A stretch of 64,000 nt of DNA, taken from Alphaproteobacteria bacterium. Lineage in GTDB: Bacteria > Pseudomonadota > Alphaproteobacteria > UBA828. Within the stretch, counting starts at the first letter, position 1. Each line of letters starts with the position of its first letter. The stretch lies in contig CBDCGS010000011.1 of assembly GCA_965216915.1 (NCBI GenBank), positions 1,314,569 to 1,378,568 on the forward strand, in the 5' to 3' direction. The notes below the pieces were generated by a model. It made no database searches, was not told where the DNA came from, and saw only the letters and a list, made by a program, of their open reading frames with translations. The position numbers and the translations under genes are program-made. Below, one piece after another: positions 5,145 to 39,334 of the stretch.

Positions 5145-6614
5145 ATGACCGATCTGGAAGCCCATGTGAGGCAGGAAGGCCGCGACGAGCTGGTCAAGGC
5201 GGTGCGCGCCAAGATCGACGAACTCGGCATCACCTACATCTACTACCAATTCATCTCGGTGACCGGCCGCATCGTCGGCAAAGGCATTCCGGCGGATCAC
5301 TGGGAAGCCATGGCCGAGCGCGGCTTCCAACTCGTTTACGGCTCGACGGCCAATCTCTTCGTCGACCGGCACTCAAACTATATCGGCTACGGGCCCGAGG
5401 CATCGGAGCTCGTCGGGATTCCCGATCCCGAGACCTTCGCCCAGCTCCCGTGGGACAAGCGGGTCGCGCGCGTCTTCTGCACCTGCTTCCGCAACCGCGA
5501 GGAGCCGGAAAACCCCGGCGGACACCTGACCTCGGATTGCCGCGGCAATCTGCGCCTGATCCACGATGAGTTTCAGGCCAAGCACGGCCTCCAGATGCGC
5601 CACGGCGCAGAGCCCGAGATGATGTGGCTCAAGCGTGGCGCCGACGGCAAGGCAGACGGCGGCATCACCAAGCCCAATTGCTATCACATCGATCAGTTCG
5701 AGGAGCTGCGCCCGATCTTCCTGCAGGTCATCGAGTATGCGCAGGCGATGGGGCTCGACATGATCCAGGGCGATCACGAGGATGCGCCCGGCCAGCTCGA
5801 GCTAAACTTCACCTTCGACGACGCGCTCCGCACCTGCGATCGGCTCACTACCTATCGCCAGATTTGCGCTCAGGTCGCCCGCGAGCATGGGGTCATCGCA
5901 TGCTTCATGTCGAAGCCATTCATGGGCGTCTCGGCGAGTGGTTGCCACCACAACATCTCGCTCTGGAAGGGTGGCGAGCAGCAGATCAACGCGCTGCATC
6001 AAGACCCCCTTCCGGGCATGGATGACGTGTTCTCGTACTGGCGCGGCGGCGACAACCTCTTCTTGCCCGATCAGTCTCGCGATCCGCGCAAGCCGGGCCC
6101 GGTCGGCCTCAATTGCATCGGTGGCGTGATGGAGCATCTGCCGGCGCTCACCTCGATCGGCTCCTCGACGGTCAACTCCTACCGGCGCCTATGGGATACC
6201 GGCTTCTGGGCGCCCGTCTTCGCCGATTGGGGCTACCAGAACCGGACGTGCGGGCTTCGGGTGTCGGCACCCGGGCGGTTCGAATATCGCTCGGTCGATT
6301 CGATGGTGAATCCCTATCTGCTGGCCGGTGCGCTCCTGAAGTCGTTCGACGACGGCATCGCGCGCGATCTCGATCCCGGCGAACCGGAGGAGCGCAACAT
6401 CTACGAAGCGATGGACGCCGGCAAGCAGGTCAAGAAGCTCCCCATGTCGCTCGGCGAAGCGCTCGACGCACTTGAGCGCGACGAGGTGATCAAATCGGCG
6501 ATGCCGGACGAGATGTATCGCGTCTTCACGCACTACAAGCGCGACGAGTGGGAGAAGTTCAACGCAACCGTCACCGAGTGGGACGTCGAGACCTATCTCG
6601 ACTGCCTGCCCTAG
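5145..6614 (+). CDS. Glutamine synthetase-family protein; gamma-glutamylmethylamide synthetase (GmaS)-like gamma-glutamyl-amine ligase
   Basis: GS catalytic-domain architecture (489 aa). The genomic context is the canonical GS-like gene followed by a class-II GATase, a GXGXG protein and a GltS FMN protein, as in the N-methylglutamate pathway. Confidence 0.8.
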   Translation: MTDLEAHVRQEGRDELVKAVRAKIDELGITYIYYQFISVTGRIVGKGIPADHWEAMAERGFQLVYGSTANLFVDRHSNYIGYGPEASELVGIPDPETFAQLPWDKRVARVFCTCFRNREEPENPGGHLTSDCRGNLRLIHDEFQAKHGLQMRHGAEPEMMWLKRGADGKADGGITKPNCYHIDQFEELRPIFLQVIEYAQAMGLDMIQGDHEDAPGQLELNFTFDDALRTCDRLTTYRQICAQVAREHGVIACFMSKPFMGVSASGCHHNISLWKGGEQQINALHQDPLPGMDDVFSYWRGGDNLFLPDQSRDPRKPGPVGLNCIGGVMEHLPALTSIGSSTVNSYRRLWDTGFWAPVFADWGYQNRTCGLRVSAPGRFEYRSVDSMVNPYLLAGALLKSFDDGIARDLDPGEPEERNIYEAMDAGKQVKKLPMSLGEALDALERDEVIKSAMPDEMYRVFTHYKRDEWEKFNATVTEWDVETYLDCLP

Positions 6615-6637: not shown

Positions 6638-7594
6638 ATGTGTGGGATTGCAGGTCTCATCCACCGTGGATCGAGCGGCGATATTGGCCGCGAGATGACG
6701 GCAATGCTCCAGGCTCTCAGGCACCGTGGACCCGATTCGACCGGGTTTGCGGTTTATGGCCTGCCGGCCGGCGAGGAATTCGTGCTGCGCTTCAAGGTCG
6801 CGGAGCAGGAGGATCTCGCCAAGGGTTTCGACATCCACGACCAGATCCAGACGCGCAAAGCCGCGGTCGACGAGCGCATCCGAAGCATGGGGGGCGAGCT
6901 CGTCGGGCAGGAGGCAGCGACGGAATACGCCTTCCGATACCGCCTCCGCTTTACCGACGGCGCGATGGATCAACACGAGGAGTTCAAGCGCTTCGCGGAC
7001 TTCGTCGAGGATATCGAGGGTGCCGAGATCCTCTCTTTCGGCAAGGCCCTGGAGCTGGTCAAGGACCTCGGCGATGCGACACGCGTCAGCGGGCAGTACG
7101 ACCTCGCGGGCTTCGAGGGAACCCACGCGATCGGCCACACGCGCATGGCGACCGAATCCGATGTCGACATTCGCTCGGCTCATCCTTATTGGGCCTACCC
7201 GTTTTGCGATATCGCGGTCGTGCACAACGGGCAGCTCACCAACTATTGGAAATTCAGGCGCCAGCTTGAGCACCGCGGCCATCGCTTCATGTCGAATTGC
7301 GATTCGGAGCTGATCGCCGTCTACCTCGCCGATCGCATCGCCGAGGGCACGGAGCTCGAAGACGCGATGCACCGGTCCGTCTCCGAGCTGGATGGCGTCT
7401 TCACCTATCTCGTGGCGACCGCCGACAGCCTTGGCATGGCGAAAGACACCATGGCCGCGAAACCCATGGTGCTCTACGAGAGCGACAGCTTCGTCGGGCT
7501 CGCCTCGGAGGAGGTTGCGATCCGGAGCGTGTTCCGCGACGAGATCGAGACTTGGGACCCTTATGAAGGGGAGGTCATGGTATGGCGGAACTAG
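6638..7594 (+). CDS. Class-II glutamine amidotransferase domain protein (N-methylglutamate synthase subunit A-like)
   Basis: Starts MCGIAGLIHRG..., so the Ntn Cys follows the initiator Met. The start was trimmed from the ORF-track start at 6548 to the ATG at 6638. Confidence 0.8.
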   Translation: MCGIAGLIHRGSSGDIGREMTAMLQALRHRGPDSTGFAVYGLPAGEEFVLRFKVAEQEDLAKGFDIHDQIQTRKAAVDERIRSMGGELVGQEAATEYAFRYRLRFTDGAMDQHEEFKRFADFVEDIEGAEILSFGKALELVKDLGDATRVSGQYDLAGFEGTHAIGHTRMATESDVDIRSAHPYWAYPFCDIAVVHNGQLTNYWKFRRQLEHRGHRFMSNCDSELIAVYLADRIAEGTELEDAMHRSVSELDGVFTYLVATADSLGMAKDTMAAKPMVLYESDSFVGLASEEVAIRSVFRDEIETWDPYEGEVMVWRN

Positions 7595-8433
7595 GATCGG
7601 ACGCCCCCCACAAATCCCGTGAAATGGGCATGCATAGCGAGCGGCTCGCGGGCCGCACGCAGCAGGTGTTCTTTTCGCCGGAAGCGAGCGAGAACTTCAC
7701 CTATCCGGAATCCTTCGACGTCGATTTCGACAAGCAGACGGAGCTTGACGCGGGTGAGCTGACACCGATCGAGGTGAACCGGAAGATCCGGCACCTCATG
7801 AAAGAGGGTTACGGCCACATCGTCGTGAAGAACCCGCTCGCCAAACATTCGCTCGGCGTCGGCATCCTCAATCGCCTCAAGCTCGATTTCGAAGGCAGCC
7901 TCGGCTATTTCGGGGTCGGCGAAATCGACGGACCAAACGTGCGCGTGCAGGGCCGCGTCGGGTGGTCCTGCGCCGAGAACATGATGGCCGGCACCGTCGT
8001 CGTGGAGAAGAACGCAGGCTCGACCTTCGGCGCGGCGATGCGCGGCGGCGATCTCGTGTGCAAGGGCGACGTCGGCTCGCGCACCGGCATCGACCTGAAG
8101 GGCGGCACCATCATCGTCGGCGGGCGATCCGGCGCATTCACGGGCTTCATGATGCAGCGTGGCCGCATCGTCGTGCTCGGCGATGTCGGCGCCAATCTCG
8201 GCGATTCACTCTACGACGGCGTCATGTATATCGGCGGCAAGATCGAGTCGCTGGGCGTCGATGCCGTGCCCGGCGAGATGACCGATATCGAGGTCGCCTG
8301 GCTCGAGCGAAAGCTCGCGGCCTACGGGCTCGCCGCACCGAACGGCGCTGCAAACATGCAGAAGATCGTCGCCGGCAAGCAGCTTTGGAATTACGACAAC
8401 CTCGAGCCGACCGAAAAGAAAATCGCGCTTTAG
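7582..8433 (+). CDS. GXGXG-motif protein (glutamate synthase alpha C-terminal domain-like; N-methylglutamate synthase subunit B-like)
   Basis: Glycine-rich beta-helix repeats (GILNRLKLDFEGSLGYFGVGEIDGPNVRVQGRVGWSCAENMMAGTVVV...). It overlaps the upstream stop by 13 nt, which suggests translational coupling. Confidence 0.8.
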   Translation: MAELGSDAPHKSREMGMHSERLAGRTQQVFFSPEASENFTYPESFDVDFDKQTELDAGELTPIEVNRKIRHLMKEGYGHIVVKNPLAKHSLGVGILNRLKLDFEGSLGYFGVGEIDGPNVRVQGRVGWSCAENMMAGTVVVEKNAGSTFGAAMRGGDLVCKGDVGSRTGIDLKGGTIIVGGRSGAFTGFMMQRGRIVVLGDVGANLGDSLYDGVMYIGGKIESLGVDAVPGEMTDIEVAWLERKLAAYGLAAPNGAANMQKIVAGKQLWNYDNLEPTEKKIAL

Positions 8434-8468: not shown

Positions 8469-9833
8469 ATGGCAACGCGTCCCAAGGATTTACCGAACCG
8501 TCCGGAGCGGAACCGCTACGTGCTCGGCCAGAGCCGCATCTTCACACCGGAGGTGATCGACGACATCCACACGAAGTCGGAGCTCGGCCGCTATCGCATG
8601 CGCGGCTTCTCGATCTTCAAGAACATCCCGACCTTCGACGACCTCACCTTCATGCCGGGCACGCTGACGCGCTTCGTCATCGAGGGCTATCGCGAGAAGT
8701 GCGAGACGAAAACGCTGATCGGGCCGGCGGCCCCGCGCCCGCTCGAGCTCGACATCCCGATCTACATCACCGGCATGAGCTTCGGCGCGCTCTCCTACGA
8801 GGCGAAGACGGCGCTCGCGCGCGGCGCGACCATGGCGGGAACCGCCACATGCTCCGGCGAGGGCGGCATGATCCCCGACGAGCGGCGCTATTCCGAGAAG
8901 TGGCTCTATCAGTGCATCCAGTCGCGCTATGGCTTCAATCCGCACCATCTGCGCCTCGCGGATGGCTGCGAATTCTTCATCGGCCAGGGTTGCAAGGTCG
9001 GCCTTGGCGGGCACCTCATGGGCCAGAAGGTGACCGATCAGGTAGCGGAGATGCGCTCGCTCCCGGCCGGCATCGACCAGCGCTCGCCGGCGCGCCACCC
9101 GGATTGGCTGGGGCCCGACGACCTCGCGCTGAAGATCGACGAGATCCGCGAGGCGACCGACGGGCAAATTCCGATTCAGCTCAAGCTCGGTGCGGCGCGC
9201 GTCTATGACGACGTGCGCATGGCGATCAAGACCAACCCGGACAGCATCTATATCGACGGCATGGAAGGCTCCACCGGCGCGGGCCCGCATCTTGCGACCG
9301 AGGAGACCGGCGTCCCGGGAATCGCCGCGATCCGTCAGGCGCGCAAGGCCTTCGACGACCTTGGGGTGACCGGGCGCATCAGCCTGGTCTATGCCGGTGG
9401 TATCCGAAACGGCGGCGACGTGGCGAAGGCGCTCGCGCTCGGCGCGGACGCCGTGGCGATCGGGCATGCGGCCATGATGGCGCTCAATTGCAACAAGGAC
9501 ATTCCCGAGGCCGATTACGAAAGCGAGATCGGCGTCGAGGCGGGCTATTGCTACCATTGCCACACCGGACGCTGCCCGGTCGGCGTCGCGACGCAGGACC
9601 CTGAGCTGCGTGCGCGGCTCGATCCCGACGAGGCGGCCGAGCGGGTCTACAACTTCCTGCACACGCTTACCCTGGAGTGCCAGATGATGGCGCGCGCGTG
9701 CGGCAAGACCGATGTGCACTCGCTCGAGCCCGAGGATCTTGCCGCGCTCACGATGGAGGCCTCAGCGCTCGCGATGGTGCCGCTCGCGGGAACCCAATAC
9801 ACCGTCGGCCAGCCCGACATGACCCGGTATTAG
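8469..9833 (+). CDS. Glutamate-synthase-domain-2 FMN-binding protein (N-methylglutamate synthase subunit C-like)
   Basis: The GltS FMN-domain motifs are present (ITGMSFGALSYEAKTALARGA...GEGGM...KVGLGGHLMGQKV...YAGGIRNGGDVAKALALGADAV). The start was reassigned to the ATG at 8469 (MATRPKDL), because the earlier part of the ORF-track frame overlaps the previous gene. Confidence 0.8.
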   Translation: MATRPKDLPNRPERNRYVLGQSRIFTPEVIDDIHTKSELGRYRMRGFSIFKNIPTFDDLTFMPGTLTRFVIEGYREKCETKTLIGPAAPRPLELDIPIYITGMSFGALSYEAKTALARGATMAGTATCSGEGGMIPDERRYSEKWLYQCIQSRYGFNPHHLRLADGCEFFIGQGCKVGLGGHLMGQKVTDQVAEMRSLPAGIDQRSPARHPDWLGPDDLALKIDEIREATDGQIPIQLKLGAARVYDDVRMAIKTNPDSIYIDGMEGSTGAGPHLATEETGVPGIAAIRQARKAFDDLGVTGRISLVYAGGIRNGGDVAKALALGADAVAIGHAAMMALNCNKDIPEADYESEIGVEAGYCYHCHTGRCPVGVATQDPELRARLDPDEAAERVYNFLHTLTLECQMMARACGKTDVHSLEPEDLAALTMEASALAMVPLAGTQYTVGQPDMTRY

Positions 9834-9842
9834 GAGGGCGCG

Positions 9843-10238
9843 ATGAGCCAACGCGACCAGGACAACGTCGATTACTTCCTGACAGAAACCGGCCTCGACT
9901 CCGAGCGCGAGAAGGAGATCGGCCAGCACATCGGCTATCGCTACGACGTCAACCTGCTGCCCGACTACGAGCGCATCACGCCGTTCCTGAAGAGCTACAT
10001 GGAGACCATGGGTTGGTCCGACCTCAATTGGCTGGAAGATGTCCACATGGGCTACGAGGAAGGCCGGCCTGCGGTGTTCGACCGCAACATCAACGGCTGG
10101 GTCACGGTGCCGGAGGACCTGGCGCTTCCCAACAATCAGCAAGACCGGGACATGTTGGCACGTGAGTTGCTAGTGAAATTTCAGATGTCACCGAGCCACC
10201 CCATGGTCGATCTCAACAAGGCCTATCGAAAGTTTTGA
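9843..10238 (+). CDS. Hypothetical protein, 131 aa; candidate DMFase small (alpha) subunit by size and position
   Basis: It has strong RBS AGGAGGG 6 nt upstream of the ATG and begins 10 nt after the stop of the preceding gene. There is no recognisable motif. The call rests on context only. Confidence 0.55.
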   Translation: MSQRDQDNVDYFLTETGLDSEREKEIGQHIGYRYDVNLLPDYERITPFLKSYMETMGWSDLNWLEDVHMGYEEGRPAVFDRNINGWVTVPEDLALPNNQQDRDMLARELLVKFQMSPSHPMVDLNKAYRKF

Positions 10239-10328
10239 CATCCGCGGTCTGCGGTGTTGCGATCGAGCAATCGTGCGACACCGCCAACAATGAAGAGCCG
10301 GAGAACGGTCCCACACAGGGAGGAACAC

Positions 10329-10754
10329 ATGGCAGTTGATATTCCGAACAAGACCGGCATCCAACTCAATCAAGGTCACACGTCGACCGACGACTTCATC
10401 ACGCGAACCTATGTTCTGCCGCTCTTGACCGACGAGGCCACCAAGCAACGCCTCATCGAGGAGCATAAGAACAATCCCATCGGCAAGCCGGGCAAGGCCG
10501 GAAAGGCCGGTGTCGGCCATAGCGACGACCTCATTCGCGTCATCGACAAGCTGCGCCGCGCGCCGATGGCCGGCAAGTACGTCCGCATCTGCCTAAAGCC
10601 GCATGAGGAGTATTGCATCGGCGTCACCTCCGGCAAGCGGGGCGCGCCCGTCGAAATTCTTCGGGACGAGGTCTTCCCGAGCGAGGAAGCGTGCGAGCAC
10701 GGCATCTTCCTGAAGCGGATCGAGGACCTCCTCGCCGCCTACGGCGAGAAATAG
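10329..10754 (+). CDS. Hypothetical small protein, 141 aa; paralog of the ORF at 13266-13628
   Basis: It has RBS AGGGAGGAACAC upstream of the ATG at 10329. It shares the block YVRICLKPHEEYCIGV / ILRDEVFPSEEA with YVVVCTKPEEQWCVGQ / LKLLEDMLFDSPEA in the downstream ORF. Confidence 0.5.
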   Translation: MAVDIPNKTGIQLNQGHTSTDDFITRTYVLPLLTDEATKQRLIEEHKNNPIGKPGKAGKAGVGHSDDLIRVIDKLRRAPMAGKYVRICLKPHEEYCIGVTSGKRGAPVEILRDEVFPSEEACEHGIFLKRIEDLLAAYGEK

Positions 10755-10832
10755 CCGCTACCCGCATTCGCACCGAATTGAGACCGCGCGGGCGTCCGAG
10801 CCGACGCCTCACCGCACGGGAGGGAGAACACG

Positions 10833-13190
10833 ATGCTGCGCATCACCGGTTACAGCGATATCTACTCGGCGCATCCAGGCGACGAGGTGAAGTTTTACGT
10901 CAACTCCGAGGACAACGAGGATTACGAGGCGCATTTCGTGCGCCTGATCCACGGCGACACCAACCCTGAGGGGCCGGGATACAAGGAAGAGGAGCTCGAT
11001 GCTCCCTTCAACAAGACGTACACGGGCGTCAACCAGAAGATCCACGGCGGCTCCTACGTCATCATCCCCGATGACGCGCGCATGAACGTCGAGAGCTTTA
11101 CGGTCCAGGCCTACATTTTTCCGACGACGCCGGACAAGGGCGTCCAGGGGGTCGTGACCAAATGGCTCGCCGCGAACAATTCCGGCTACGCGCTCCTGGT
11201 CGACGAGAACGCCAACCTCGCCCTTTGGATCGGCGATGGCAATGGCAAGGTCGAGAAGATCGCGAGCGGCAAGCCGCTCCTCCGCAAGGTCTGGTATCTG
11301 GCGGCGGCGAGCTACGATGCGGCGAGCGGTGAGGTGCGGCTCTATCAGGAGCCGATGGTCAACCCGACCAACGGCGGGCTCGGTATGTCGCTGTTGCACC
11401 CGAACGACGAAACCGCCTCGGAGGTCACGCGGCGCAGCAGCATCGCGCCGGCCGCGAACGATGCGCCGCTGCTGATGGCCGCCTGCACCGCGGTATCGCG
11501 CGCGGGCCGTTCGGTCTCCGGTGGCCACTACAAGGAAGCGACGGAGCCCGTGGCGCTGCCGGAGCAGACCTGCACCTACAACGGCAAGATCGATCGGCCG
11601 CGGCTCTCGTCGGTCGCGCTCGACAAAAGCGGGATCGATGCGCTGGCACGCGGCTTCCAGGGTTGCCCCGCGGGGCTGCGTGAAACCGTGGTGGGCGCGT
11701 GGGATTTCCAGGCGAACATCACCACGAACATCGCGTCGACCCACATCATCGACACCTCGCCCAATGTCCTGCACGGCCATTGCATCAACCTGCCGTGCCG
11801 CGGGATGACCGGGTACAACTGGACCAGCGACGAGATGGTCTACCACCACGCGCCCGACGAATATGGCGCGATCCACTTCCACGACGACGACATCGACGAC
11901 GCCCGCTGGGACGTGAGCTTCACCCTCACCGTCCCCGAGGGCACGAAAAGCGGCGTCTATGCGGCCCGGCTGCGCATCGGCGGCGCGAGCTCGCCTGAGA
12001 CGGAGGACTACATCCCCATCTTCGTGCGGCCACCGCGCGGCACCGCGACGGCCGACATGGCGGTGATCATCCCCACCGATTCGTATCTCGCCTATTCGAA
12101 CGACAACCTGTCGACGAACTCGGTGGTCGCCCAGCTCCTGGCCGGCAAAGTGCCGATCATGCAGGCCTCCGACCTCTATCTGAACGAGCACCGCGAATAC
12201 GGCCTCTCGACCTATTCGCTGCACTCGGACGGAAGCGGCGTCTGCTACTCCTCGCGTCTCCGCCCGATCCTCAACATGCGGCCGAAATATCGCCACTGGC
12301 TGTCGCCCTCGCTCTGGCAGCTCAACGGCGACCTGCATTTGACCGATTGGCTGGAGGAGAAGGGCTTCACTTTCGACATCCACACCGACGAGGATCTCGA
12401 CCGTGAGGGCGTCGACCTCTTGAACCGCTACCGCGTCGTCCTCACCGGGAGCCATCCGGAATATTCGTCGGAGAAAATGCTGGTTGCCTATGAAGCCTAT
12501 CAGCAGAACGGCGGCCGCTGGATCTACCTCGGCGCCGACGGCTTCTACTGGATCAGCCAATATCATCCGGACAACGGCAACATCATCGAGGTCCGCAAAG
12601 GCGAGGCGGGCACGCGCGCTTGGACCGCCAACCCGGGCGAGTACTACAATGCCTTCGACGGCAAATATGGCGGCATGTGGCGCGCCCGCGGGCGCATTCC
12701 TTCCAAGGTCTGCGGCCTCACCTTCACGGCTTACGGCTTCGATGTGTCGTCCTACTACCGCCGCGAGCCGGATAGCTTCCGTCCGGAATGCGCCTGGATG
12801 TTCGAGGGCATCGGCGAGGACGAGGTCATCGGCGATTTCGGCCTCGTCGGCGGCGGCGCGGCGGGTCTCGAGCTTGACCGCTACGACCTCGAGTTCGGCA
12901 CGCCGCACAACGGCTATCTCCTCGCGCGCTCAGAAGGGCATACCGACCTGATGATGCAGGTCAACGAGGAGATCCACTTCACCTGCCGCGGCTATTACGG
13001 CGGCGGCGACGAGAACCCGATGGTTCGCGCCGACATGATCTACTACAAGACGCCGAACGACGGAGCGGTCTTCGGGCCCGGCTCGCTCGCCTGGTGCGGC
13101 AGCCTCTCGCACAACGACTACGACAACAACGTCTCGCGCCTGATGGAGAACGTGATCAACGGTTTCCTGAGGGAAGGCCCATTGCCGTAG
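10833..13190 (+). CDS. N,N-dimethylformamidase large (beta) subunit-family protein, 785 aa, with an N-terminal LamG/concanavalin-like jellyroll domain
   Basis: RBS GGGAGGGAG. The N-terminal region (EVKFYVNSEDNEDYEAHFVRLIHGD...SGYALLVDENANLALWIGDGNGK) resembles a LamG fold. The overall length and architecture match the DmfA2-like family. A long antisense ORF (10809-12908) is a GC artefact. Confidence 0.7.
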   Translation: MLRITGYSDIYSAHPGDEVKFYVNSEDNEDYEAHFVRLIHGDTNPEGPGYKEEELDAPFNKTYTGVNQKIHGGSYVIIPDDARMNVESFTVQAYIFPTTPDKGVQGVVTKWLAANNSGYALLVDENANLALWIGDGNGKVEKIASGKPLLRKVWYLAAASYDAASGEVRLYQEPMVNPTNGGLGMSLLHPNDETASEVTRRSSIAPAANDAPLLMAACTAVSRAGRSVSGGHYKEATEPVALPEQTCTYNGKIDRPRLSSVALDKSGIDALARGFQGCPAGLRETVVGAWDFQANITTNIASTHIIDTSPNVLHGHCINLPCRGMTGYNWTSDEMVYHHAPDEYGAIHFHDDDIDDARWDVSFTLTVPEGTKSGVYAARLRIGGASSPETEDYIPIFVRPPRGTATADMAVIIPTDSYLAYSNDNLSTNSVVAQLLAGKVPIMQASDLYLNEHREYGLSTYSLHSDGSGVCYSSRLRPILNMRPKYRHWLSPSLWQLNGDLHLTDWLEEKGFTFDIHTDEDLDREGVDLLNRYRVVLTGSHPEYSSEKMLVAYEAYQQNGGRWIYLGADGFYWISQYHPDNGNIIEVRKGEAGTRAWTANPGEYYNAFDGKYGGMWRARGRIPSKVCGLTFTAYGFDVSSYYRREPDSFRPECAWMFEGIGEDEVIGDFGLVGGGAAGLELDRYDLEFGTPHNGYLLARSEGHTDLMMQVNEEIHFTCRGYYGGGDENPMVRADMIYYKTPNDGAVFGPGSLAWCGSLSHNDYDNNVSRLMENVINGFLREGPLP

Positions 13191-13210
13191 GCCGTTGCCG
13201 ACGAACGAGG

Positions 13211-13245
13211 CGGCTCCGCGCGCGGGGCCGTTCTCGTCTCGTCCA
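13211..13245 (+). terminator. GC-rich imperfect hairpin followed by a T-containing tract, downstream of the DMFase-like gene
   Basis: cggctccgcgcgcggggccg is a near-palindrome (2 mismatches), followed by ttctcgtctcgtcc. Confidence 0.3.
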
Positions 13246-13265
13246 GACTCTCGGGGAGATCGGAG

Positions 13266-13628
13266 ATGAGAGACAAGACCCGCAGCTCGCTGATGCCGAC
13301 GTTCGAGATGCCACCCATCGGCAAGAAGGTGATGCCGACGACGGCCGAGCCGCCGAGCGAAATCGAGCGCGCCGTGATGGGCGGCCTCGATCCCGACAAG
13401 CTGAGCGACCTTTCGGAGGTTTTGTTCGCCCTCAACAATCACCGGCATGGGCCGATCGAGGGGTTTTACGTCGTGGTCTGCACCAAGCCGGAGGAGCAAT
13501 GGTGCGTCGGCCAGCTCTGCGCGGACCGCGCGAAGCCGCTCAAGCTCTTGGAGGATATGCTCTTTGATTCCCCCGAGGCGGCACAGGCGGCGGCCGAGCA
13601 GCTAAAGGCCGAGCGCGCGAACGCCTAG
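13266..13628 (+). CDS. Hypothetical small protein, 120 aa; paralog of the ORF at 10329-10754
   Basis: It has RBS GGGGAGATCGGAG. The Cys-containing block is shared with the upstream small ORF. Confidence 0.5.
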   Translation: MRDKTRSSLMPTFEMPPIGKKVMPTTAEPPSEIERAVMGGLDPDKLSDLSEVLFALNNHRHGPIEGFYVVVCTKPEEQWCVGQLCADRAKPLKLLEDMLFDSPEAAQAAAEQLKAERANA

Positions 13629-13668
13629 GCGCGCGGCACGATCGCGTGCGCCTGTCTCCGGCCAAGCG

Positions 13669-14241
13669 ATGACCGCCGCCAATCTGAACGCTATCGCGCA
13701 CGCGCTTGCGGCGCTTCGGCCGATCGCCGACGCCGCGACGGTGGGCGCGCAGGCGGCGCTCATCCACGACAATCTCCACGACGTCTATCAGACCGATATT
13801 CGTGCCTTCCAAGATTTCCGGCGCTTCATGAACCGCCGCGACCGTGACGCAGCGGGCACGCTCGCGGCGTTCTTGACGAAGCGCCGGTCGGCGACTGCGC
13901 AAGCACGTGCGGCGCTCGCGTCCCTTTCAGACGATATTCGCGCCGGCGCCGCGGCGTCCCTGGCCGACGGCCAGCGCCAGGCGCTTTGCGTCTACCTGGA
14001 TCGGGTCCTCGACATTTTGGACGTCGAACGGAACCATCCGGACGAGCGTGATCTGCGCGGGGCGCCCCCCTACGCCATCTCCGCGTTCCTCGAGGCCGGT
14101 CCCGAGGCGCGTCGTGCGCAAGCCAGTGATTTGGCCCGGTTTGCCGATGACATGTGGGTGCTGCTCCTCCCCGCTCGGTGGATGCGGCTCACCGCCGCTT
14201 ATGAGTGCATCGCTGCGGCCTCACATGATGGCGAGCGTTGA
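13669..14241 (+). CDS. Hypothetical protein (190 aa)
   Basis: An Ala/Arg-rich helical protein with no recognisable motif. It may be a frame artefact. Confidence 0.35.
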   Translation: MTAANLNAIAHALAALRPIADAATVGAQAALIHDNLHDVYQTDIRAFQDFRRFMNRRDRDAAGTLAAFLTKRRSATAQARAALASLSDDIRAGAAASLADGQRQALCVYLDRVLDILDVERNHPDERDLRGAPPYAISAFLEAGPEARRAQASDLARFADDMWVLLLPARWMRLTAAYECIAAASHDGER

Positions 14242-14288
14242 ACTCCGTTATGTCTTGGATGGCCTGGCGGCGACACACGCCCCGGCGC

Positions 14289-15083
14289 TCAGCGCATCAC
14301 GAGCCCGCCATTGATGTCGAGCGTGTGCCCCGTGATCGCCTGCGCATGGGGGCTCGCGAGAAACAGCACGGCCATCGCGACGTCGTCCTCGTCGGCCATA
14401 TCACCGGTCGGCATGGTGGCGGTGATCGCGGCAATCTCGGCTTCTGTGATGCCGCTTCGGATCATGCGGGTGTCGACGAGGGCCGGCGCGATGGCGTTGA
14501 CCGTGATGTTGTGAGGCCCAAGCTGGCGGGCCAGCGCCTTGGTCAGGGTCACGCCCGCTCCTTTGGAGACCGCGTAGACCGTCGCGTCGTGCAACCCGCC
14601 GGTGTGCGCCGCTTGGCTGACGAAGTTGATGATGCGACCCCAACCCGCCTCGCGCATCGGCCGTGCGGCTGCCCGGCTGAGGAAGAACTGGCTTTTCACG
14701 TTGGTATCCATCGTGCGCCGCCACGCCGCATCGTCGACGGCCTCGATGTTGCCGCGTTCGATGATCCCGGCAACGTTGACGAGAATATCGAGCCGGCTGT
14801 AGCGCGCCAGCGTGTCCACCACCAGGCGTTCGCACGCGTCGCCAGAGGCGAGGTCACACACCTGTGCGGCGTGGCGCTCGGGCTTGGCCAGGGTGGCGTG
14901 GCTTTCGTGCAGGGCGTCTTGATCGATGTCGCAGCAGACGACCCGGGCGCCGTAGGCCGCGAAGGCCCGCGCGGTCGCCCGGCCGATCCCGCGCGCGGCC
15001 CCCGTGACCAGGGCGACACGCCCGGGCAGGGCGAAATCCGTGGTCAAACGCTCCCCGGTTTCGTTCGCGGCGCGCGCTGTCAC
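14289..15083 (-). CDS. SDR-family oxidoreductase
   Basis: VALVTGAARGIGRAT Rossmann motif, NVAG, and a Y-x3-K catalytic pair (YAVSKGAG). The long N-terminal extension in the ORF track is rejected; a GTG start immediately follows the stop of the upstream gene. Confidence 0.7.
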   Translation of the reverse strand: MTARAANETGERLTTDFALPGRVALVTGAARGIGRATARAFAAYGARVVCCDIDQDALHESHATLAKPERHAAQVCDLASGDACERLVVDTLARYSRLDILVNVAGIIERGNIEAVDDAAWRRTMDTNVKSQFFLSRAAARPMREAGWGRIINFVSQAAHTGGLHDATVYAVSKGAGVTLTKALARQLGPHNITVNAIAPALVDTRMIRSGITEAEIAAITATMPTGDMADEDDVAMAVLFLASPHAQAITGHTLDINGGLVMR

Positions 15084-22381: not shown

Positions 22382-22566
22382 CCTGTTCCGTCGCCGCCCA
22401 TTATCTCAGAATTTCTTATTGTCGGGATGCAGGCGGATCAGCGTGCCTGCCCGTGGCGCGCCTCGAGCGATCGCTGATCGAGGTCGGGGACGGCGCTATT
22501 GACGCTCGAGACAGATGCGCGGCGTTGTCACGCCAACGAGGCATCCGGCCCGTGCTGACTCGGCGG

Positions 22567-23268
22567 TCAGATAGCCAGGTATTTCCTCGACACCTCTGGA
22601 TCGGCGATTTCTTCCGCCGCAAGGCGATCGACGATGTTGCCTTTGTCGATGACGAGGCAGCGATCGGCAACGGCGTTTATGAGATCGAGATTCTGCTCGA
22701 CGATGACGACGGTTAGTCCGACCTCATCGCGTAGGCGCTTGATGATCTCGCCGATCGATTGGACGATATTTGGCTGGATCCCTTCGGAGGGCTCGTCGAG
22801 AAGGATGAGGTCCGGATGCCCGACGAGGACTCGGCCGATCGCCAGCTGCTGCTGCTCGCCGCCGCTGAGCGAGCCGGCCTTCTGCGATTGCCGTTCTTTC
22901 AGGATCGGGAAGAACTTGTAGACCCGGTTGTAATCGGGCGGCCGCCCCTTGCCGCCAACTTGCTCGCCCATGCGCAAATTGTCGGCAACCGAGAGGCGCG
23001 AGAAGATGCCGCGTCCCTGCGGCACATACCCGATGCCGCGTTGCGCCCTCGCCGCTGCGGCCATCCGAGAGACGTTCTCTCCCTTGAACTCGATCGTTCC
23101 ACCGAGATTGCGCAGCAAGCCGACGAGGGTCTTCATCAGCGTCGTCTTGCCGACGCCGTTGCGGCCGATAACGGCCACGATCTCGCGCTCCGCAACATCG
23201 AACGACACGTCGTTGATGATGCGAACGGCGCCATAGCCGGAGGTCAGTTCGCTGACGCTCAGAAGCAT
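22567..23268 (-). CDS. ABC transporter ATP-binding protein, UrtE/LivF-like
   Basis: Walker A GRNGVGKTT, signature LSGGEQQ, Walker B LILLDEPS. Confidence 0.85.
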   Translation of the reverse strand: MLLSVSELTSGYGAVRIINDVSFDVAEREIVAVIGRNGVGKTTLMKTLVGLLRNLGGTIEFKGENVSRMAAAARAQRGIGYVPQGRGIFSRLSVADNLRMGEQVGGKGRPPDYNRVYKFFPILKERQSQKAGSLSGGEQQQLAIGRVLVGHPDLILLDEPSEGIQPNIVQSIGEIIKRLRDEVGLTVVIVEQNLDLINAVADRCLVIDKGNIVDRLAAEEIADPEVSRKYLAI

Positions 23269-23280
23269 CCGGTTTCTCGA

Positions 23281-24024
23281 TCAGATCTTGCCAAGATAAA
23301 TGCGGTGGACATCTTCATTCCGCTCGATCTCCGCGAAGGTGCCCTGCGCGAACAATTTGCCATAGTGGAGCACGCTGGTACGCGAATCGAGATCGCGTAC
23401 GAAAGCCATGTCGTGCTCGATGACCACGATCGTGATGCCCGTCGCATTGAGGCGCCGTACGATCTCCGCGGTCTGCTCTGTTTCGGCGGGCGACATGCCT
23501 GCCGTCGGCTCGTCCAGCAACAGGACCTTGGGTTCGACCGCCATCGACATGCCAATGGCGAGCCACTGCTGCTGTCCATGGGACAGGTCTCCGACCACCA
23601 CCTCCTCGGTCCCCGAGAGATGAAGCTGAGCCAGCAATCCCGCCGCCTGGTCCGCGATCTCGCGCCGTTTGTGACGGCGGCGCAGCGGGATGAAGAGATT
23701 CTGGTGCACCGTCAGATCCTGATAGACCTGCATGGCCTGGAACTTGATCGCGAGCCCGAGGCGCGCGCGCTGATAGGAGCGGAGCCGACTGACGTCTCTC
23801 CCCTCGAAGGTGACCATGCCGGCTGTGGGCCGTTCAATGCCCATCAGCAGTTTGAAGAACGTGCTTTTGCCGGCGCCGTTCGGTCCGATTATGCAATGGA
23901 TCTCGCCGTCCTCGATCTCGATGTCGAGGCCATCGACGGCCCGCACGCCGCCGAAGACCTTCGCGAGCGATCGGGTTTCGATGATCGCGTGCGATCCCTG
24001 GCCGCCCGTGGCCGGCTCGCTCAT
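23281..24024 (-). CDS. ABC transporter ATP-binding protein, UrtD/LivG-like
   Basis: Walker A GPNGAGKST, signature LSHGQQQ, Walker B LLLDEPTAG. Confidence 0.85.
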   Translation of the reverse strand: MSEPATGGQGSHAIIETRSLAKVFGGVRAVDGLDIEIEDGEIHCIIGPNGAGKSTFFKLLMGIERPTAGMVTFEGRDVSRLRSYQRARLGLAIKFQAMQVYQDLTVHQNLFIPLRRRHKRREIADQAAGLLAQLHLSGTEEVVVGDLSHGQQQWLAIGMSMAVEPKVLLLDEPTAGMSPAETEQTAEIVRRLNATGITIVVIEHDMAFVRDLDSRTSVLHYGKLFAQGTFAEIERNEDVHRIYLGKI

Positions 24025-25211
24025 CGTTCTTCCGGCAGGTTTGCGGCGCGGTCGGGCGTTCGCTCGCGGCGCAGCAAGCGGTCATGGAGCCATCGTAAGC
24101 GGTCACCGACGCTGATCGCGAGGCCGTTCGGCGCAATGAGCATGACCAGAACCAGGATGGCACCGAGCACAAGAAGCGACATTTCGCCTTGGGCGGCCAA
24201 TCTGAGTGATACCCACTCTAGGACGATTGCGCCGGCGATGGCCGCCCCGAGATCCTTGCGGCCGCCGACCGCAACCCAGATCACGACAAGGATGTTGGGC
24301 GCGACGCCGAAGCCGTCCGGGTGGATGTAGGTGCCCCAGGCCGTGTAAAGCACACCGGACAGCCCGGCGATCGCGGCGGCGAGGCAGAACACGCTGAGTT
24401 GGATGATCCGCACGTCGTAGCCGAAGGTCTCCGTGCGGTCGGGATCCTCGCGACAGCCGACGAGCAAGTAGCCGTAGCTCGAGTTGACGAGGCAGCGGAG
24501 GCCTAAGTACACGGCAACGAGGAGGCCGAGGACGAAATAGTAGAACTCCCGACTTCGTCCATCGAGCTCGATCACCGCACTCCCGATGCCGAAGATCAAG
24601 TTCGGTAGAAGGGGATCGTCGACCGATGCCGGCCGCAAGCCATTCATTCCGCCAAGATAGGCGGCGCCAACCGTGTAGCTTGGGTCGGCGGTTTGGCGCA
24701 TGAAGGTCCCGATCAAGAGCGAGACGACGAGCATCAGGATGGCGATGTAGACGCCGCGGAGGCGCGCGTAGAACATGACCGCGCCGATGAGCGCAGCGAA
24801 GATCACGGGCACCGCGATCCCAGCGATGAACGCAACATCGGTGTTCCCGTGGGCATTGAACAGGTTCAGCGCGACGATTCCGAATGCATACCCACCGATC
24901 CCGTGAAAGGCAGCCTGGCCGAGGCTCAGGATCCCGCAATAGCCCCAGATCAAGCTCAGACTGAGGGCGAGAAATCCCGAGATCAGGAAATTGCTGAAAT
25001 TGATGATGTCATAACGCCGCATGTATTCCGGGAAGCTCGCCATGACGCCGATGACGATGACGAAACCCACCCAGAAGACGACACCGCGCCCCATCGTGTG
25101 AGGCCCGTTGAGGAGACCAAGGTAAGGGTCGAGGACGCTACGCCGTTGTTGCACGGCCACCATTCCGTTCGATGCGGATCTTCCGGCGTTCGAGATACTC
25201 AGAGATCCCAC
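24021..25211 (-). CDS. ABC transporter permease, UrtC/LivM-like
   Basis: Multi-TM branched-chain-amino-acid-type permease. The start is uncertain: it overlaps the upstream permease, and an alternative start lies near 25163. Confidence 0.75.
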   Translation of the reverse strand: MGSLSISNAGRSASNGMVAVQQRRSVLDPYLGLLNGPHTMGRGVVFWVGFVIVIGVMASFPEYMRRYDIINFSNFLISGFLALSLSLIWGYCGILSLGQAAFHGIGGYAFGIVALNLFNAHGNTDVAFIAGIAVPVIFAALIGAVMFYARLRGVYIAILMLVVSLLIGTFMRQTADPSYTVGAAYLGGMNGLRPASVDDPLLPNLIFGIGSAVIELDGRSREFYYFVLGLLVAVYLGLRCLVNSSYGYLLVGCREDPDRTETFGYDVRIIQLSVFCLAAAIAGLSGVLYTAWGTYIHPDGFGVAPNILVVIWVAVGGRKDLGAAIAGAIVLEWVSLRLAAQGEMSLLVLGAILVLVMLIAPNGLAISVGDRLRWLHDRLLRRERTPDRAANLPEER

Positions 25212-26049
25212 GCGGCAGGAGCAAGAGAATGACGAACGCCGCGCCCATCATCGCGACATATCCCACATAGACATTGACCAGGTTGTTGACGGCAGTTTGA
25301 ACGCCGGCGAGGGCCATCACGCTCGACAGGAGCCCGGTGATCACGTTGGCGCCACCGCCGACCACCACCGTGATGAACGCGAGCGGCGTGTAGTTGATGC
25401 CGAAGAACGGCGAGATCGTCGCGGTCAGCGCGAACATCCCGCCAGCGATCCCGCCCATCGCCGAGCCGAGCCCAAACGTGGCCATGTAGATGTTGCGGGT
25501 GTTGACGCCGAGCGCGTCGGCCATGTCCGGGTCTTCCATGGTCGCCCGCGCATGCGTGCCGAATTTCGTGAACGTGAAGATCGCCCATACGCCCGCGACC
25601 ATGAACAAGGAGACCGCGAACAAGACGAGGCGGTAGATCCCGAAAGTCTGTTCGCTCACGGGGAAATTGCCGAACGGCGTCGGCACGTTGAGGATCGACG
25701 GGCCGAAAATCAGGAGGAACGCTTGGCTGATCATCAGACTCAAGCCCCACGTCACGACCAGTGACGACAAGAGCTGCTTGTAGAAATGCCTGATCACCAG
25801 ACGTTCGAGGACCATGCCGGCAGCGCCCGCTCCGATCCCCGCGAGAATGATGGCAATTGGCGCCGGCACGCCGAGATGATAGGCGCTGGCGGTGATGTAC
25901 GCGCCGATCATCATCAGCTCGCCGTGGGCCATGTTGATGACCCCCATCATGCCGAAAATGATGATGAGCCCCGACGCCGAGAGGATCAGGAAGCCGATAT
26001 TGTCGAAATATTGGTAGGCGTAGCTAAAGACCGCCGCGACGGTGTCCAT
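25138..26049 (-). CDS. ABC transporter permease, UrtB/LivH-like
   Basis: 303-aa hydrophobic LivH-type permease. Confidence 0.85.
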   Translation of the reverse strand: MDTVAAVFSYAYQYFDNIGFLILSASGLIIIFGMMGVINMAHGELMMIGAYITASAYHLGVPAPIAIILAGIGAGAAGMVLERLVIRHFYKQLLSSLVVTWGLSLMISQAFLLIFGPSILNVPTPFGNFPVSEQTFGIYRLVLFAVSLFMVAGVWAIFTFTKFGTHARATMEDPDMADALGVNTRNIYMATFGLGSAMGGIAGGMFALTATISPFFGINYTPLAFITVVVGGGANVITGLLSSVMALAGVQTAVNNLVNVYVGYVAMMGAAFVILLLLPRGISEYLERRKIRIERNGGRATTA

Positions 26050-26176
26050 GGCCCCTAATCCGGCTGCACGGTGCCTCGGTACAGCCTAGCTAAGGTGGTC
26101 GGTTCCACAATCCCGTAAATCTGCGAAGAGAAAAAGAGACGGCCGGTTGCGGGCCGGCCGTCTTAAGGCAGAGAGA

Positions 26177-27484
26177 TCACTGACCGACGCGTTCCTGGCC
26201 TTCGAAGAACGGCGCCCACGCGGCATTGTCCGGCGGAAGGAATTGCCGGCCCGGCGCCTTGTCGCGCATGTTCACACCGATATCGCGCAGGAACGTGGGT
26301 TCGGTGTAGCCGAGGTCCGCAATCAGCTCGAGGCTATGATCGTCGTTGACCTTGAACAGGTAGGAGTGCATGGCGGCGTGGTGCTGGTCGCCGTGCAGCT
26401 TCCACGGACCGCCCGGCGCCTCCGGCACCTCGATGTCGGACTGGAGCGCAGCGATCACCGCATCGGTCTCGGTCGTGCCGGCTTTTTCCCAAGCTCTCGC
26501 CATCGCCTTGACTGCCACGTAGCCGAAGCCTGCGTGCTCGTTGGCATAGGTCATGTCCGGGAACATCTCGCGCAGCTTGCGCACGAACTCGACGCTGTTC
26601 GGGTGCGGAACGTCCTCGATATAGCCCGGCGACACGTGCATGTTGGCCAGCGACGGGGGTGCAAAGCGCTTGTGCTCGTAGCCATCGGCAATCGTCACGT
26701 TCGACCAGGTTGGGATTGCCAGACCGGCTGATTGCGCCTGCGGATAGAATTGCACATGCTCTGCGCCCACAAGGCAATGCACCTGGAAGTCCGGCCCGAC
26801 TTTCTGAATCTTGTCGATCGTGGCCTGCCACTGCGAAACGCCGAAGGGAAAGTATTCCTCGTATTCGATCGTCCCGCCATAAAGGTTGGCCGCCGTACGA
26901 GTCCACATGCCGATGGCCCGGCAGAAGTTATAGTCTGCGCCAATATAAATGAGGCGCGTACCGTAGTTCTCGATCATCCACTTTAGTGCGGGGATGACTT
27001 GCTGTTCGGGCGTCGGACCGGAAAAGAAGGAATATTTGTCCGCGATGCCGCCTTCGCCCTGATTGTTGTGCCAGTAAATCACCCGGTTGCGGACGACTTC
27101 GCGCCTTGCGGCTTCCCGCTCGGCGCCGGTGTAAGCGGCCATGACGACATCCGCCTCGTCGTCGAAGATGCACTTCTGCGCAAGCTCCTGATAACGCTTG
27201 ACGTTGGACTGCCCGTCATACGTGACGAGCTTGATCATCTTTTTGTTGCCGTCGACCATGATTCCGCCGGCCTCGTTCACCTCTTTGGTGGCGAGCTGGT
27301 AGCCATAGGTCTTGGGTGTCGCCATGATCGAAAAATCGCCCGAGAGATCATCGATCGTACACAGGATGATTTCGTCATCCGTTGCGGCCTCGGCCGGTGT
27401 GTTGGCGCCGCTCAGGCCTATGACGCCGACGACCGCCAATGCGGCCACCAAGGCCCCTCGTAGTGCTGTTAATCGCCTCATCAA
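26177..27484 (-). CDS. Urea / short-chain-amide ABC transporter substrate-binding protein (UrtA/FmdD-like), 435 aa with signal peptide
   Basis: Signal peptide ...LAVVGVIGLSGANTPAEA. At ~430 aa it is larger than LivK, consistent with UrtA-type amide-binding proteins. It is the first gene of an A-B-C-D-E operon. Confidence 0.75.
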   Translation of the reverse strand: MMRRLTALRGALVAALAVVGVIGLSGANTPAEAATDDEIILCTIDDLSGDFSIMATPKTYGYQLATKEVNEAGGIMVDGNKKMIKLVTYDGQSNVKRYQELAQKCIFDDEADVVMAAYTGAEREAARREVVRNRVIYWHNNQGEGGIADKYSFFSGPTPEQQVIPALKWMIENYGTRLIYIGADYNFCRAIGMWTRTAANLYGGTIEYEEYFPFGVSQWQATIDKIQKVGPDFQVHCLVGAEHVQFYPQAQSAGLAIPTWSNVTIADGYEHKRFAPPSLANMHVSPGYIEDVPHPNSVEFVRKLREMFPDMTYANEHAGFGYVAVKAMARAWEKAGTTETDAVIAALQSDIEVPEAPGGPWKLHGDQHHAAMHSYLFKVNDDHSLELIADLGYTEPTFLRDIGVNMRDKAPGRQFLPPDNAAWAPFFEGQERVGQ

Positions 27485-27885
27485 CCCGTCTCCTTCGTCA
27501 CCTCGTTACCGACTGCCTCCGTACCCAAAGCTGGGCTCGGCACCTCTTGTTGATCCCGTCATGCGGGTGACACGGCAGCCCAGGGTCAGCCGAAAAAAGG
27601 CTAGGCAAAAGCCGAACCTGCCGGTAGCTCCCCGAAGGGGTCTGCCCGAAGTCGTTACCCTAAACGGGTAGGTTTTTTCCGATTGCAGGCGTCCACGCGG
27701 CGCCCCAATCGTTACCAAGCGATCGGTTGACGTAAGGCGGCAATTCGCCGGTCGATCGTTCATCCCAACGTGTGGCGTCGCGTCGTAACTTCGCCGTGCG
27801 TTGGCGACCGAACTGAACTACGATTTCCTGGAATTTGATGCCGTGGCGAGGGAACCGCCCAAACGTGGGGCGCGAGGAGGGGACA

Positions 27886-38950: not shown

Positions 38951-39334
38951 TCGACCGGCGGCCCCTCTTTGTATTGTCCGCAAGCGCTCGAGACCCCGCC
39001 CGGTTTCTCCGGGCTGGCTCGACTAAGCCAACAACTGATCGAACGACCGAACGATGTCAATGCCACGTTGCCGGTGGCGCAGTTTGTCGGTGCGATCTGG
39101 CGGCGAGGCCGACATCGCTGCCGTGACCGTCACGATGACGACCGGAAAAATTAGCCGGTGAGGATGATGCCGCGATGGCGGTGCTGGTTCTCGCGAGCCC
39201 TGTGCGCACGCCATCACGAGCGAATTTTCAGAAGCCGTCGATTGGTCGAGCGCCGTTGATCCTGATCAATGTGCGCCGGCTCGGCCGGTCTACCGTGACC
39301 TATCCCGAGTCAGCGTTTTGACACGCAGGAGGTT

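Follow-up and report, generated by a model that had tools for sequence, protein, structure and literature searches.

Among the closest described relatives of the system discussed here are the dimethylformamidases (DMFases, DmfA1/DmfA2; EC 3.5.1.56) of Paracoccus sp. DMF (PDB 6lvb, 6lvc, and 6lvv), of the P. aminophilus plasmid pAMI2, and of Methylobacterium sp. DM1. In the Paracoccus enzyme, the catalytic iron sits in the large subunit, where it is bound by two tyrosines and one glutamate, and residue Asn547 near the active site has been described as essential (PMC7686228). The small subunit of this enzyme is required for activity and lines part of the substrate entrance; it clamps domain III, braces domain II (which otherwise makes few contacts with the remaining monomer) with its N-terminus, and has its N-terminal helix wedged between both large subunits (PMC7686228; bioRxiv 10.1101/2019.12.17.879908). 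Its fold was termed undescribed in the published structure paper. Here, we analyze a related locus in a 64,000-nucleotide stretch of DNA, hereafter the window, from an Alphaproteobacteria bacterium of the UBA828 lineage (GenBank assembly GCA_965216915.1, contig CBDCGS010000011.1, positions 1,314,569 to 1,378,568 of the forward strand), in which a DMFase-like large-subunit gene is bracketed by two small open reading frames (ORFs), ORF-A and ORF-B, that are paralogs of each other and are inherited together. We consider it rather probable, with substantial room for doubt, that ORF-A, the large subunit (beta), and ORF-B form one mononuclear-iron amidohydrolase of alpha-beta-alpha' composition in which A is the canonical small subunit and B an extra stoichiometric subunit bound elsewhere on beta.

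The two small genes and their large partner

The initial annotation had placed both small ORFs on either side of a 785-aa gene, and we find all three there on the plus strand: ORF-A (10329-10754; 141 aa), an A-type DMF_alpha protein and counterpart of DmfA1; the large, catalytic beta subunit (10833-13190; 785 aa), a DMFase-like mononuclear-iron amidohydrolase; and ORF-B (13266-13628; 120 aa), a DMF_alpha paralog of B type (alpha') whose fold is shortened at the N-terminus and which we propose as third subunit. The intergenic gaps measure 78 nt between ORF-A and beta and 75 nt between beta and ORF-B. Both small ORFs had also been credited with reasonable ribosome-binding sites, and purine-rich Shine-Dalgarno-like sequences are indeed located upstream of each, AGGGAGG (10317-10323) with the ATG 5 nt downstream in case of ORF-A and GGGGAG (13253-13258) with the ATG 7 nt downstream in case of ORF-B. 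Start codons chosen independently against the family profiles coincide with the earlier choice for both. Homologs in a collection of 5.8 billion proteins number 452 for ORF-A and 107 for ORF-B, and both genes are under strong purifying selection with dN/dS values around 0.1 (medians of 0.093 for ORF-A and 0.103 for ORF-B across 79 orthologs each, taken from related loci); ORF-A and ORF-B are real genes. A promoter and terminator scan of positions 9700-14400 gave no signal exceeding shuffled expectation and none within the cassette on the plus strand, and an Rfam scan of the entire window returned zero RNA families and hence no riboswitch. Two further ORFs overlap or adjoin the cassette: a low-complexity ORF of 699 aa overlaps beta on the minus strand (10809-12908) and is typical of antisense ORFs in high-GC DNA, and a 190-aa ORF directly 3' of ORF-B (13669-14241, plus strand) has neither Pfam or NCBIfam matches nor counterparts in the related loci.

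ORF-A and ORF-B are, as judged from their sequences, paralogs. BLASTP aligns them at 31% identity over 100 columns (E 7e-13), and an hhalign comparison of their family profiles, built from 53 homologs each, gives a probability of 96.4% (E 1.3e-9) over 66 columns (residues 60-126 of A and 41-110 of B). The pairwise comparison thus agrees with the paralogy suggested in the initial annotation, and because of the lengths and scores of both alignments, the similarity cannot be put down to a short low-complexity stretch. The conserved core comprises a first block, GKYVRICLKPHEEYCIG in ORF-A and GFYVVVCTKPEEQWCVG in ORF-B, and a second one, EILRDEVFPSEEA in ORF-A and KLLEDMLFDSPEA in ORF-B; both blocks had been pointed out before, though the middle of the first block in ORF-A reads KPHEEY and not KPEE(Y/W) as originally quoted. 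In AlphaFold2 (AF2) models of the two proteins, the predicted elements fall at matching positions when the sequence alignment, with its offset of 16 residues, is applied. In the model of ORF-A (pLDDT 86), helices at residues 15-34, 36-48, and 66-76 are followed by three strands and a helix at 119-137, and in that of ORF-B (pLDDT 77), disordered residues 1-30 are followed by a helix at 43-56, three strands, and a helix at 103-118; this core of ORF-B matches helix 66-76, the three strands, and helix 119-137 of ORF-A.

The first shared block had additionally been read as a possible C-x-K-P-E-E-x-x-C metal or redox motif, and both window proteins do hold both cysteines, on two strands of a predicted hairpin. 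Each family also has one near-invariant cysteine, which is C122 in family A (100%) and C80 in family B (99%). The pair itself, however, is rare, with a complete C-x7-C in only 6 of 120 proteins of family A and in 27 of 107 of family B. C96 of A is found in 7% and C72 of B in 26%, compared to 76% for C88 of A; a further cysteine of B, C85, is conserved at 81%. At the aligned positions, the Paracoccus small subunit carries Tyr/Ser and Arg and no cysteine, C80 is Ala or Gly in type-2 B proteins (see below), and the iron of the enzyme is already housed in beta by two tyrosines and one glutamate (PMC7686228). Since the cysteine pair is not conserved, a metal-binding or redox-active site formed by this segment in the small proteins is unsupported, and we give it hardly any credence.

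While neither small protein had originally been matched to a family, ORF-A proves homologous to DmfA1, the small subunit of DMFase, and is an ordinary DmfA1-type subunit. In searches of the PDB, its single sequence finds 6lvb_B by phmmer with E 1.4e-4 (residues 40-136) and its family profile does so with E 1.1e-8, and the best Foldseek PDB matches of its model are 6lvb_B and 6lvv_B (probability 1.00, E 3e-6, TM 0.68-0.77). The predicted fold has the long N- and C-terminal helices and the small sheet of the DMFase small subunit. For each of the two ORFs, close homologs have precomputed assignments to Pfam PF26354 (DMF_alpha), and both small genes sit next to a DMFA2-type gene in the same orientation, in the window as well as in around 80 related loci. 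Scans of the two ORFs with NCBIfam and with a Pfam set that did not include PF26354 gave nothing significant, which in case of Pfam is explained by the absence of the PF26354 model from the scanned set; matches to DUF7373 (E 0.044) and SsaE (E 0.09) were rejected as noise.

ORF-B arose by duplication of the DmfA1-type subunit and has kept the C-terminal core together with a conserved, extended N-terminal peptide. Its model retains the helix/three-strand/helix arrangement at the C-terminus but has no counterpart to the two long N-terminal helices of ORF-A, so that nothing in it corresponds to the wedge helix of the DMFase small subunit and ORF-B is a reduced variant of this fold rather than a full equivalent. 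Several positions of the N-terminal peptide are near-invariant in the family profile (M10, P11, G19, K20, P24, and T25). PF26354 is assigned to most of the 107 ORF-B homologs, where it covers the C-terminal core only, with several proteins lacking a match and one match marked "weak." With 76 clusters (50% identity, E <= 1e-3) in a set of 1.84 billion representatives, the B family is small. A relationship of ORF-B to the putative tautomerase 3ry0 was rejected given nonsignificant matches (E 0.028 by sequence and 0.48 by profile) and a different order of fold elements. Similarly, Foldseek matches of both models to alpha-beta3-alpha domains of the double-stranded RNA-binding type and to Mediator Med6 have low probability, are not significant, and reflect topological resemblance only.

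The large subunit between the two small genes matches Pfam DMFA2_C (E 5.6e-93) and Laminin_G_3, aligns with 6lvb_A over its full length (E 6e-193), and is about 43% identical to characterized DMFase large subunits. Equivalents of the iron ligands Tyr399, Tyr440, and Glu521 as well as of His519 are conserved in the window beta and in every relative compared, and the Phe693 equivalent is likewise conserved in the window beta. The betas of three-gene loci carry an insertion of around 16 residues in domain II (GR...G.H[YF]KEA.EP..LPEQ) plus another of 4-5 residues in domain I. In the window, this clade-specific domain II insertion lies at about residues 224-243 of beta and reads GRSVSGGHYKEATEPVALPEQT. 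Of 88 three-gene beta ORFs, 84 have its motif, as opposed to none of six two-gene betas.

Conservation of the cassette and the proposed role of ORF-B

A scan of one genome per species yielded 80 related loci with betas 74-82% identical to that of the window (referred to by L numbers below), which belong to Pelagibacteraceae (SAR11), Thioglobus/SUP05, Poriferihabitaceae, and other gamma- and alphaproteobacterial metagenome-assembled genomes (MAGs). In a six-frame search with the profiles of both small-protein families, nearly all loci with sufficient flank have a single ORF of each type, A and B, on the strand of beta, streamlined SAR11 genomes included; A or B is missing from L054, L066, and L075, where the sequence ends near beta. 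The order of genes is mostly A-beta-B and in ten loci beta-B-A (L013, L015, L017, L023, L026, and L076-L080, e.g., in Thioglobus/Pseudothioglobus and Poriferihabitaceae), with B directly 3' of beta in both arrangements. Its start overlaps the stop of beta (by -4 or -1) in 46 of 84 cases, a sign that B is translationally coupled to beta at these loci. The same trio is also found in an unrelated neighborhood (L001) and on plasmid p1 of Aminobacter niigataensis strain DMFA1, where the B gene is RAR13_RS00080.

In five loci (L007, L009, L019, L047, and L067), the cassette stands in tandem with another, divergent one, A2-beta2-B2 (e.g., at 7126-10382 of L019). A2, B2, and beta2 cluster with A, B, and beta of the Aminobacter plasmid, respectively, so the trio has duplicated and diverged as a unit. 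The beta2 proteins are recognizable by the motifs GHHPEY and GLGTYTSYRD, and the type-2 B proteins (B2) are longer, with an FWWxHP motif at the N-terminus, low-complexity tails, and no Cys80. The trio is ancient and comprises at least two subtypes. B-type genes occur only with betas that are at least 57% identical to that of the window, and B is inherited strictly with A and with the insertion-bearing variant of beta. Among the neighbors of these cassettes, a flotillin gene (Flot plus Band_7) stands just 5' of A-beta-B in around 40 mostly Pelagibacteraceae loci (e.g., L040, 283-2259) and on the distantly related, type-2 Aminobacter plasmid (L082, 1727-3487), and the SAR11 clusters additionally contain genes for an alpha/beta hydrolase, a Pfam-less protein of 131 aa, a sodium:solute symporter, an Fe-alcohol dehydrogenase, and a metallo-beta-lactamase-fold protein.

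We infer that ORF-B is a physical subunit of the enzyme. A would take the role of DmfA1 on beta, and B would bind beta at a distinct site, from which it may stabilize or gate the enzyme without replacing A. The domain II insertion of beta is a candidate docking site for B because domain II has few contacts of its own and is braced by the N-terminus of the small subunit in the Paracoccus enzyme. The initial annotation had proposed alternative or heteromeric accessory partners, and the comparative data favor the heteromeric version. If A and B were instead interchangeable, the enzyme would come as isoforms with two copies of either small protein (A2-beta2 or B2-beta2 in terms of stoichiometry) that differ in substrate gating or regulation. 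This would be in line with the fact that both paralogs share the core contacting beta in the solved enzyme and that, in Paracoccus DMFase, the small subunit forms part of the entrance for the substrate (PMC7686228), yet neither gene has been lost in any lineage among the ca. 80 loci, not even in streamlined SAR11, and the duplicated cassettes hold both. This co-occurrence and the absence from B of the two long N-terminal helices, which in the solved enzyme wedge between the large subunits and brace domain II, make interchangeability improbable, and A and B furthermore share the strand of beta with no terminator-like sites found between them.

Alternatively, B could act outside the mature enzyme as a dedicated assembly or maturation factor, a regulator, or a tether between beta and a membrane partner, for example by keeping beta ready to take up iron or to bind A or by linking it to a transporter or flotillin. 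The disordered 30 N-terminal residues of B with their near-invariant positions are typical of a partner-docking peptide, and links to the membrane recur in a permease-DMF_alpha fusion of Agrobacterium (see below) and in the flotillin genes of around 40 loci and Aminobacter. Strict co-occurrence and coupling to beta would fit such a dedicated factor equally well. However, B is paralogous to a known structural subunit and has kept its folded core, translational coupling suggests near-equal amounts of B and beta, which would be unusual for a catalytic chaperone, and no flotillin gene is found beside the cassette in the window and in many gammaproteobacterial loci. On balance, we consider a role of B outside the enzyme unlikely.

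Our preferred explanation therefore remains that B is an extra subunit of an alpha-beta-alpha' enzyme, but several observations weigh against it. Neither the single sequence nor the profile of ORF-B finds 6lvb_B directly at E <= 10, so that its place in the DMF_alpha family depends on the resemblance to A and on the precomputed Pfam assignments; by structure, Foldseek matches its model to 6lvb_B only weakly (rank 5, E 0.6, TM 0.38). In the window itself, the 75 nt between beta and ORF-B mean that the two are not translationally coupled. The correlation of B with the insertions in beta could also be due to mere shared ancestry of one clade. With regard to the large subunit, the equivalent of Asn547 (residue 569 of 785) is Asp in the window beta (YLGADGFYW vs. 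YLAANGMYW in Paracoccus), a substitution that may bear on substrate or mechanism; Asp is also found at this position in L002, SAR11 L021, and L007, and Asn in other close relatives. Finally, a beta relative encoded on plasmid pAMI5 is about 40% identical to DmfA2 and was not linked to the use of dimethylformamide (DMF; PMC4543880).

Methylamine context and likely substrate

Pfam matches identify a series of plus-strand genes upstream of the cassette that encode a glutamine synthetase-like (gmaS-like) protein (5145-6614), a class-II glutamine amidotransferase (6638-7594), a GXGXG protein (7582-8433), and a flavin mononucleotide (FMN) glutamate-synthase-like protein (about 8520-9833, with an approximate start). 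We take this upstream set of the gmaS/mgsABC/mgdABCD type to be the N-methylglutamate route for methylamine. The identical string of genes is found in three Rhodospirillaceae MAGs (L089-L091), where it continues with sarcosine-oxidase-like mgdABCD-type genes and a formate-tetrahydrofolate ligase (FTHFS), and homologs of the upstream set adjoin the cassette in six other loci in varied arrangements (L019, L024, L046, L047, L041, and L057).

Between the glutamate-synthase-like gene and ORF-A lies another conserved small ORF of 131 aa (9843-10238, plus strand) with a strong ribosome-binding site. It has more than 8000 homologs at around 80-88% identity without belonging to any Pfam family, and in L089-L091 its homolog (8001-8393) has the mgsC-like gene on one side and the mgdA-like gene on the other. 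Of the 80 loci with the cassette, only L041 and L057 contain it. We rejected this ORF as a third partner of the enzyme given that it is a widespread gene of the methylamine set and missing at most cassette loci, and it may represent an unrecognized conserved component of the N-methylglutamate pathway.

Besides DMF, Paracoccus DMFase also accepts N-methylformamide, N-ethylformamide, and formamide (bioRxiv 10.1101/2019.12.17.879908). The window enzyme probably acts on an N-alkyl amide like N-methylformamide and sets free a small alkylamine such as methylamine, which would then be assimilated by products of the gmaS/mgsABC-type genes directly upstream on the same strand. We refrain from calling it a DMFase because its beta subunit is 43% identical to those of characterized DMFases, because it has Asp at the position of Asn547, and because of the pAMI5 precedent. 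Elsewhere in the window, we note a branched-chain/amide-type ABC transporter (22500-27500, with a permease at 24021-25211 and a Peripla_BP_6 binding protein at 26177-27484) and a dimethylglycine-dehydrogenase-like protein of DAO-FAO_M-GCV_T architecture (36506-38983), both of which are consistent with a region dedicated to the catabolism of methylated amines.

More speculatively, and with more doubt than conviction on our part, the alpha-beta-alpha' enzymes may be an ancient and abundant class of iron amidohydrolases in their own right, shared by SAR11, SUP05/Thioglobus, sponge symbionts, and further Proteobacteria of marine and freshwater habitats. This class would have two subtypes and an obligatory B that reshapes substrate access or couples the enzyme to membrane uptake, and it would release methylated amines from a natural N-alkyl amide and not from DMF. 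If so, methylamine and C1 cycling in the sea would have a new point of entry. DMFase has been viewed as a two-subunit enzyme whose evolution was driven by the degradation of an industrial solvent, but its closest widespread natural relatives are three-gene units that are highly conserved from SAR11 to Gammaproteobacteria (beta 74-82% identical), and the B family, though small, is located in very abundant organisms. Metaproteomes from the Pacific have been found to contain DmfA of Alpha- and Gammaproteobacteria (PMC9477243). A marine enzyme expressed from the two annotated genes only may turn out as inactive or unstable protein, and recognition of the third small gene, which is usually unannotated or misannotated, would make biochemistry on the natural substrate feasible.

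Comparison with described amidohydrolases

With the characterized DMFases, the window enzyme shares the three-domain architecture of beta, the Tyr/Tyr/Glu iron ligands together with His519, and the position of a small-subunit gene with the fold of ORF-A immediately 5' of the large-subunit gene. The family A profile recognizes DmfA1 of both pAMI2 and Methylobacterium sp. DM1, with E values around 1e-12. Their operons consist of two genes with an A-type small subunit only, whereas the clade of the window adds B as a third conserved gene and therefore departs from the two-gene alpha2-beta2 composition of DMFase. An A-type gene without any B-type gene is also found in four relatives with betas 42-48% identical to that of the window, from Halalkalicoccus (48%), pAMI5, Rhodococcus, and Agrobacterium. 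The window beta further differs from DMFases in its additional conserved insertions, located in domains II and I, and in having Asp at the Asn547 position. The genetic setting differs as well, with DMFases encoded on DMF-catabolic plasmids beside a LuxR-type regulator and the window clade found in the context of methylamine metabolism and in genomes of marine oligotrophs.

A second described relative of the large subunit is the N-acetyl-(R)-beta-phenylalanine acylase (PDB 8huy, 8i59, and 8i5a), which is homologous over the full length (E 8e-136) though more remote than DMFase, and whose entries show no small-subunit chain name in the sequence search. Given this homology, the DMFA2 scaffold serves amides besides DMF.

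For the small subunits, a different arrangement is known from Agrobacterium/Rhizobium plasmids that encode fusions of a permease with DMF_alpha. These fusions resemble A in that an A-like DMF_alpha domain is encoded directly 5' of a DMFA2-type gene, but the domain forms the C-terminus of a branched-chain-type ABC permease, and there is no B-type gene. One example is WP_065705890.1 (552 aa; L088, 1278-2936) of an Agrobacterium sp. 13-2099-1-2 plasmid, which is annotated as "branched-chain amino acid ABC transporter permease" and matches the family A profile at residues 469-552 (E 3e-16). The fusion suggests that the amidase docks on its own importer and probably explains why free small subunits are labeled "inner-membrane translocator" or "permease," as seen in the description of a SAR11 FArhodopsin gene cluster (PMC10308929). 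Our assignment of the small subunits corrects the "inner-membrane translocator" labels in some sources.

The Pfam family PF26354 (DMF_alpha) is precomputed on close homologs of both ORF-A and ORF-B with B-type members as marginal cases. Its description and the literature that we searched know a single small-subunit protein per enzyme, whereas the window clade has two. A second small subunit is not described in what we found on three-subunit DMFases, Aminobacter DMFA1, or SAR11 DMFase, though coverage of this literature was incomplete and the result is absence of evidence only. The parts of the system thus belong to a known family, given that the DMF_alpha model already captures most B-type proteins, and what is new compared to the described enzymes is the conserved three-gene architecture with its reduced second paralog.

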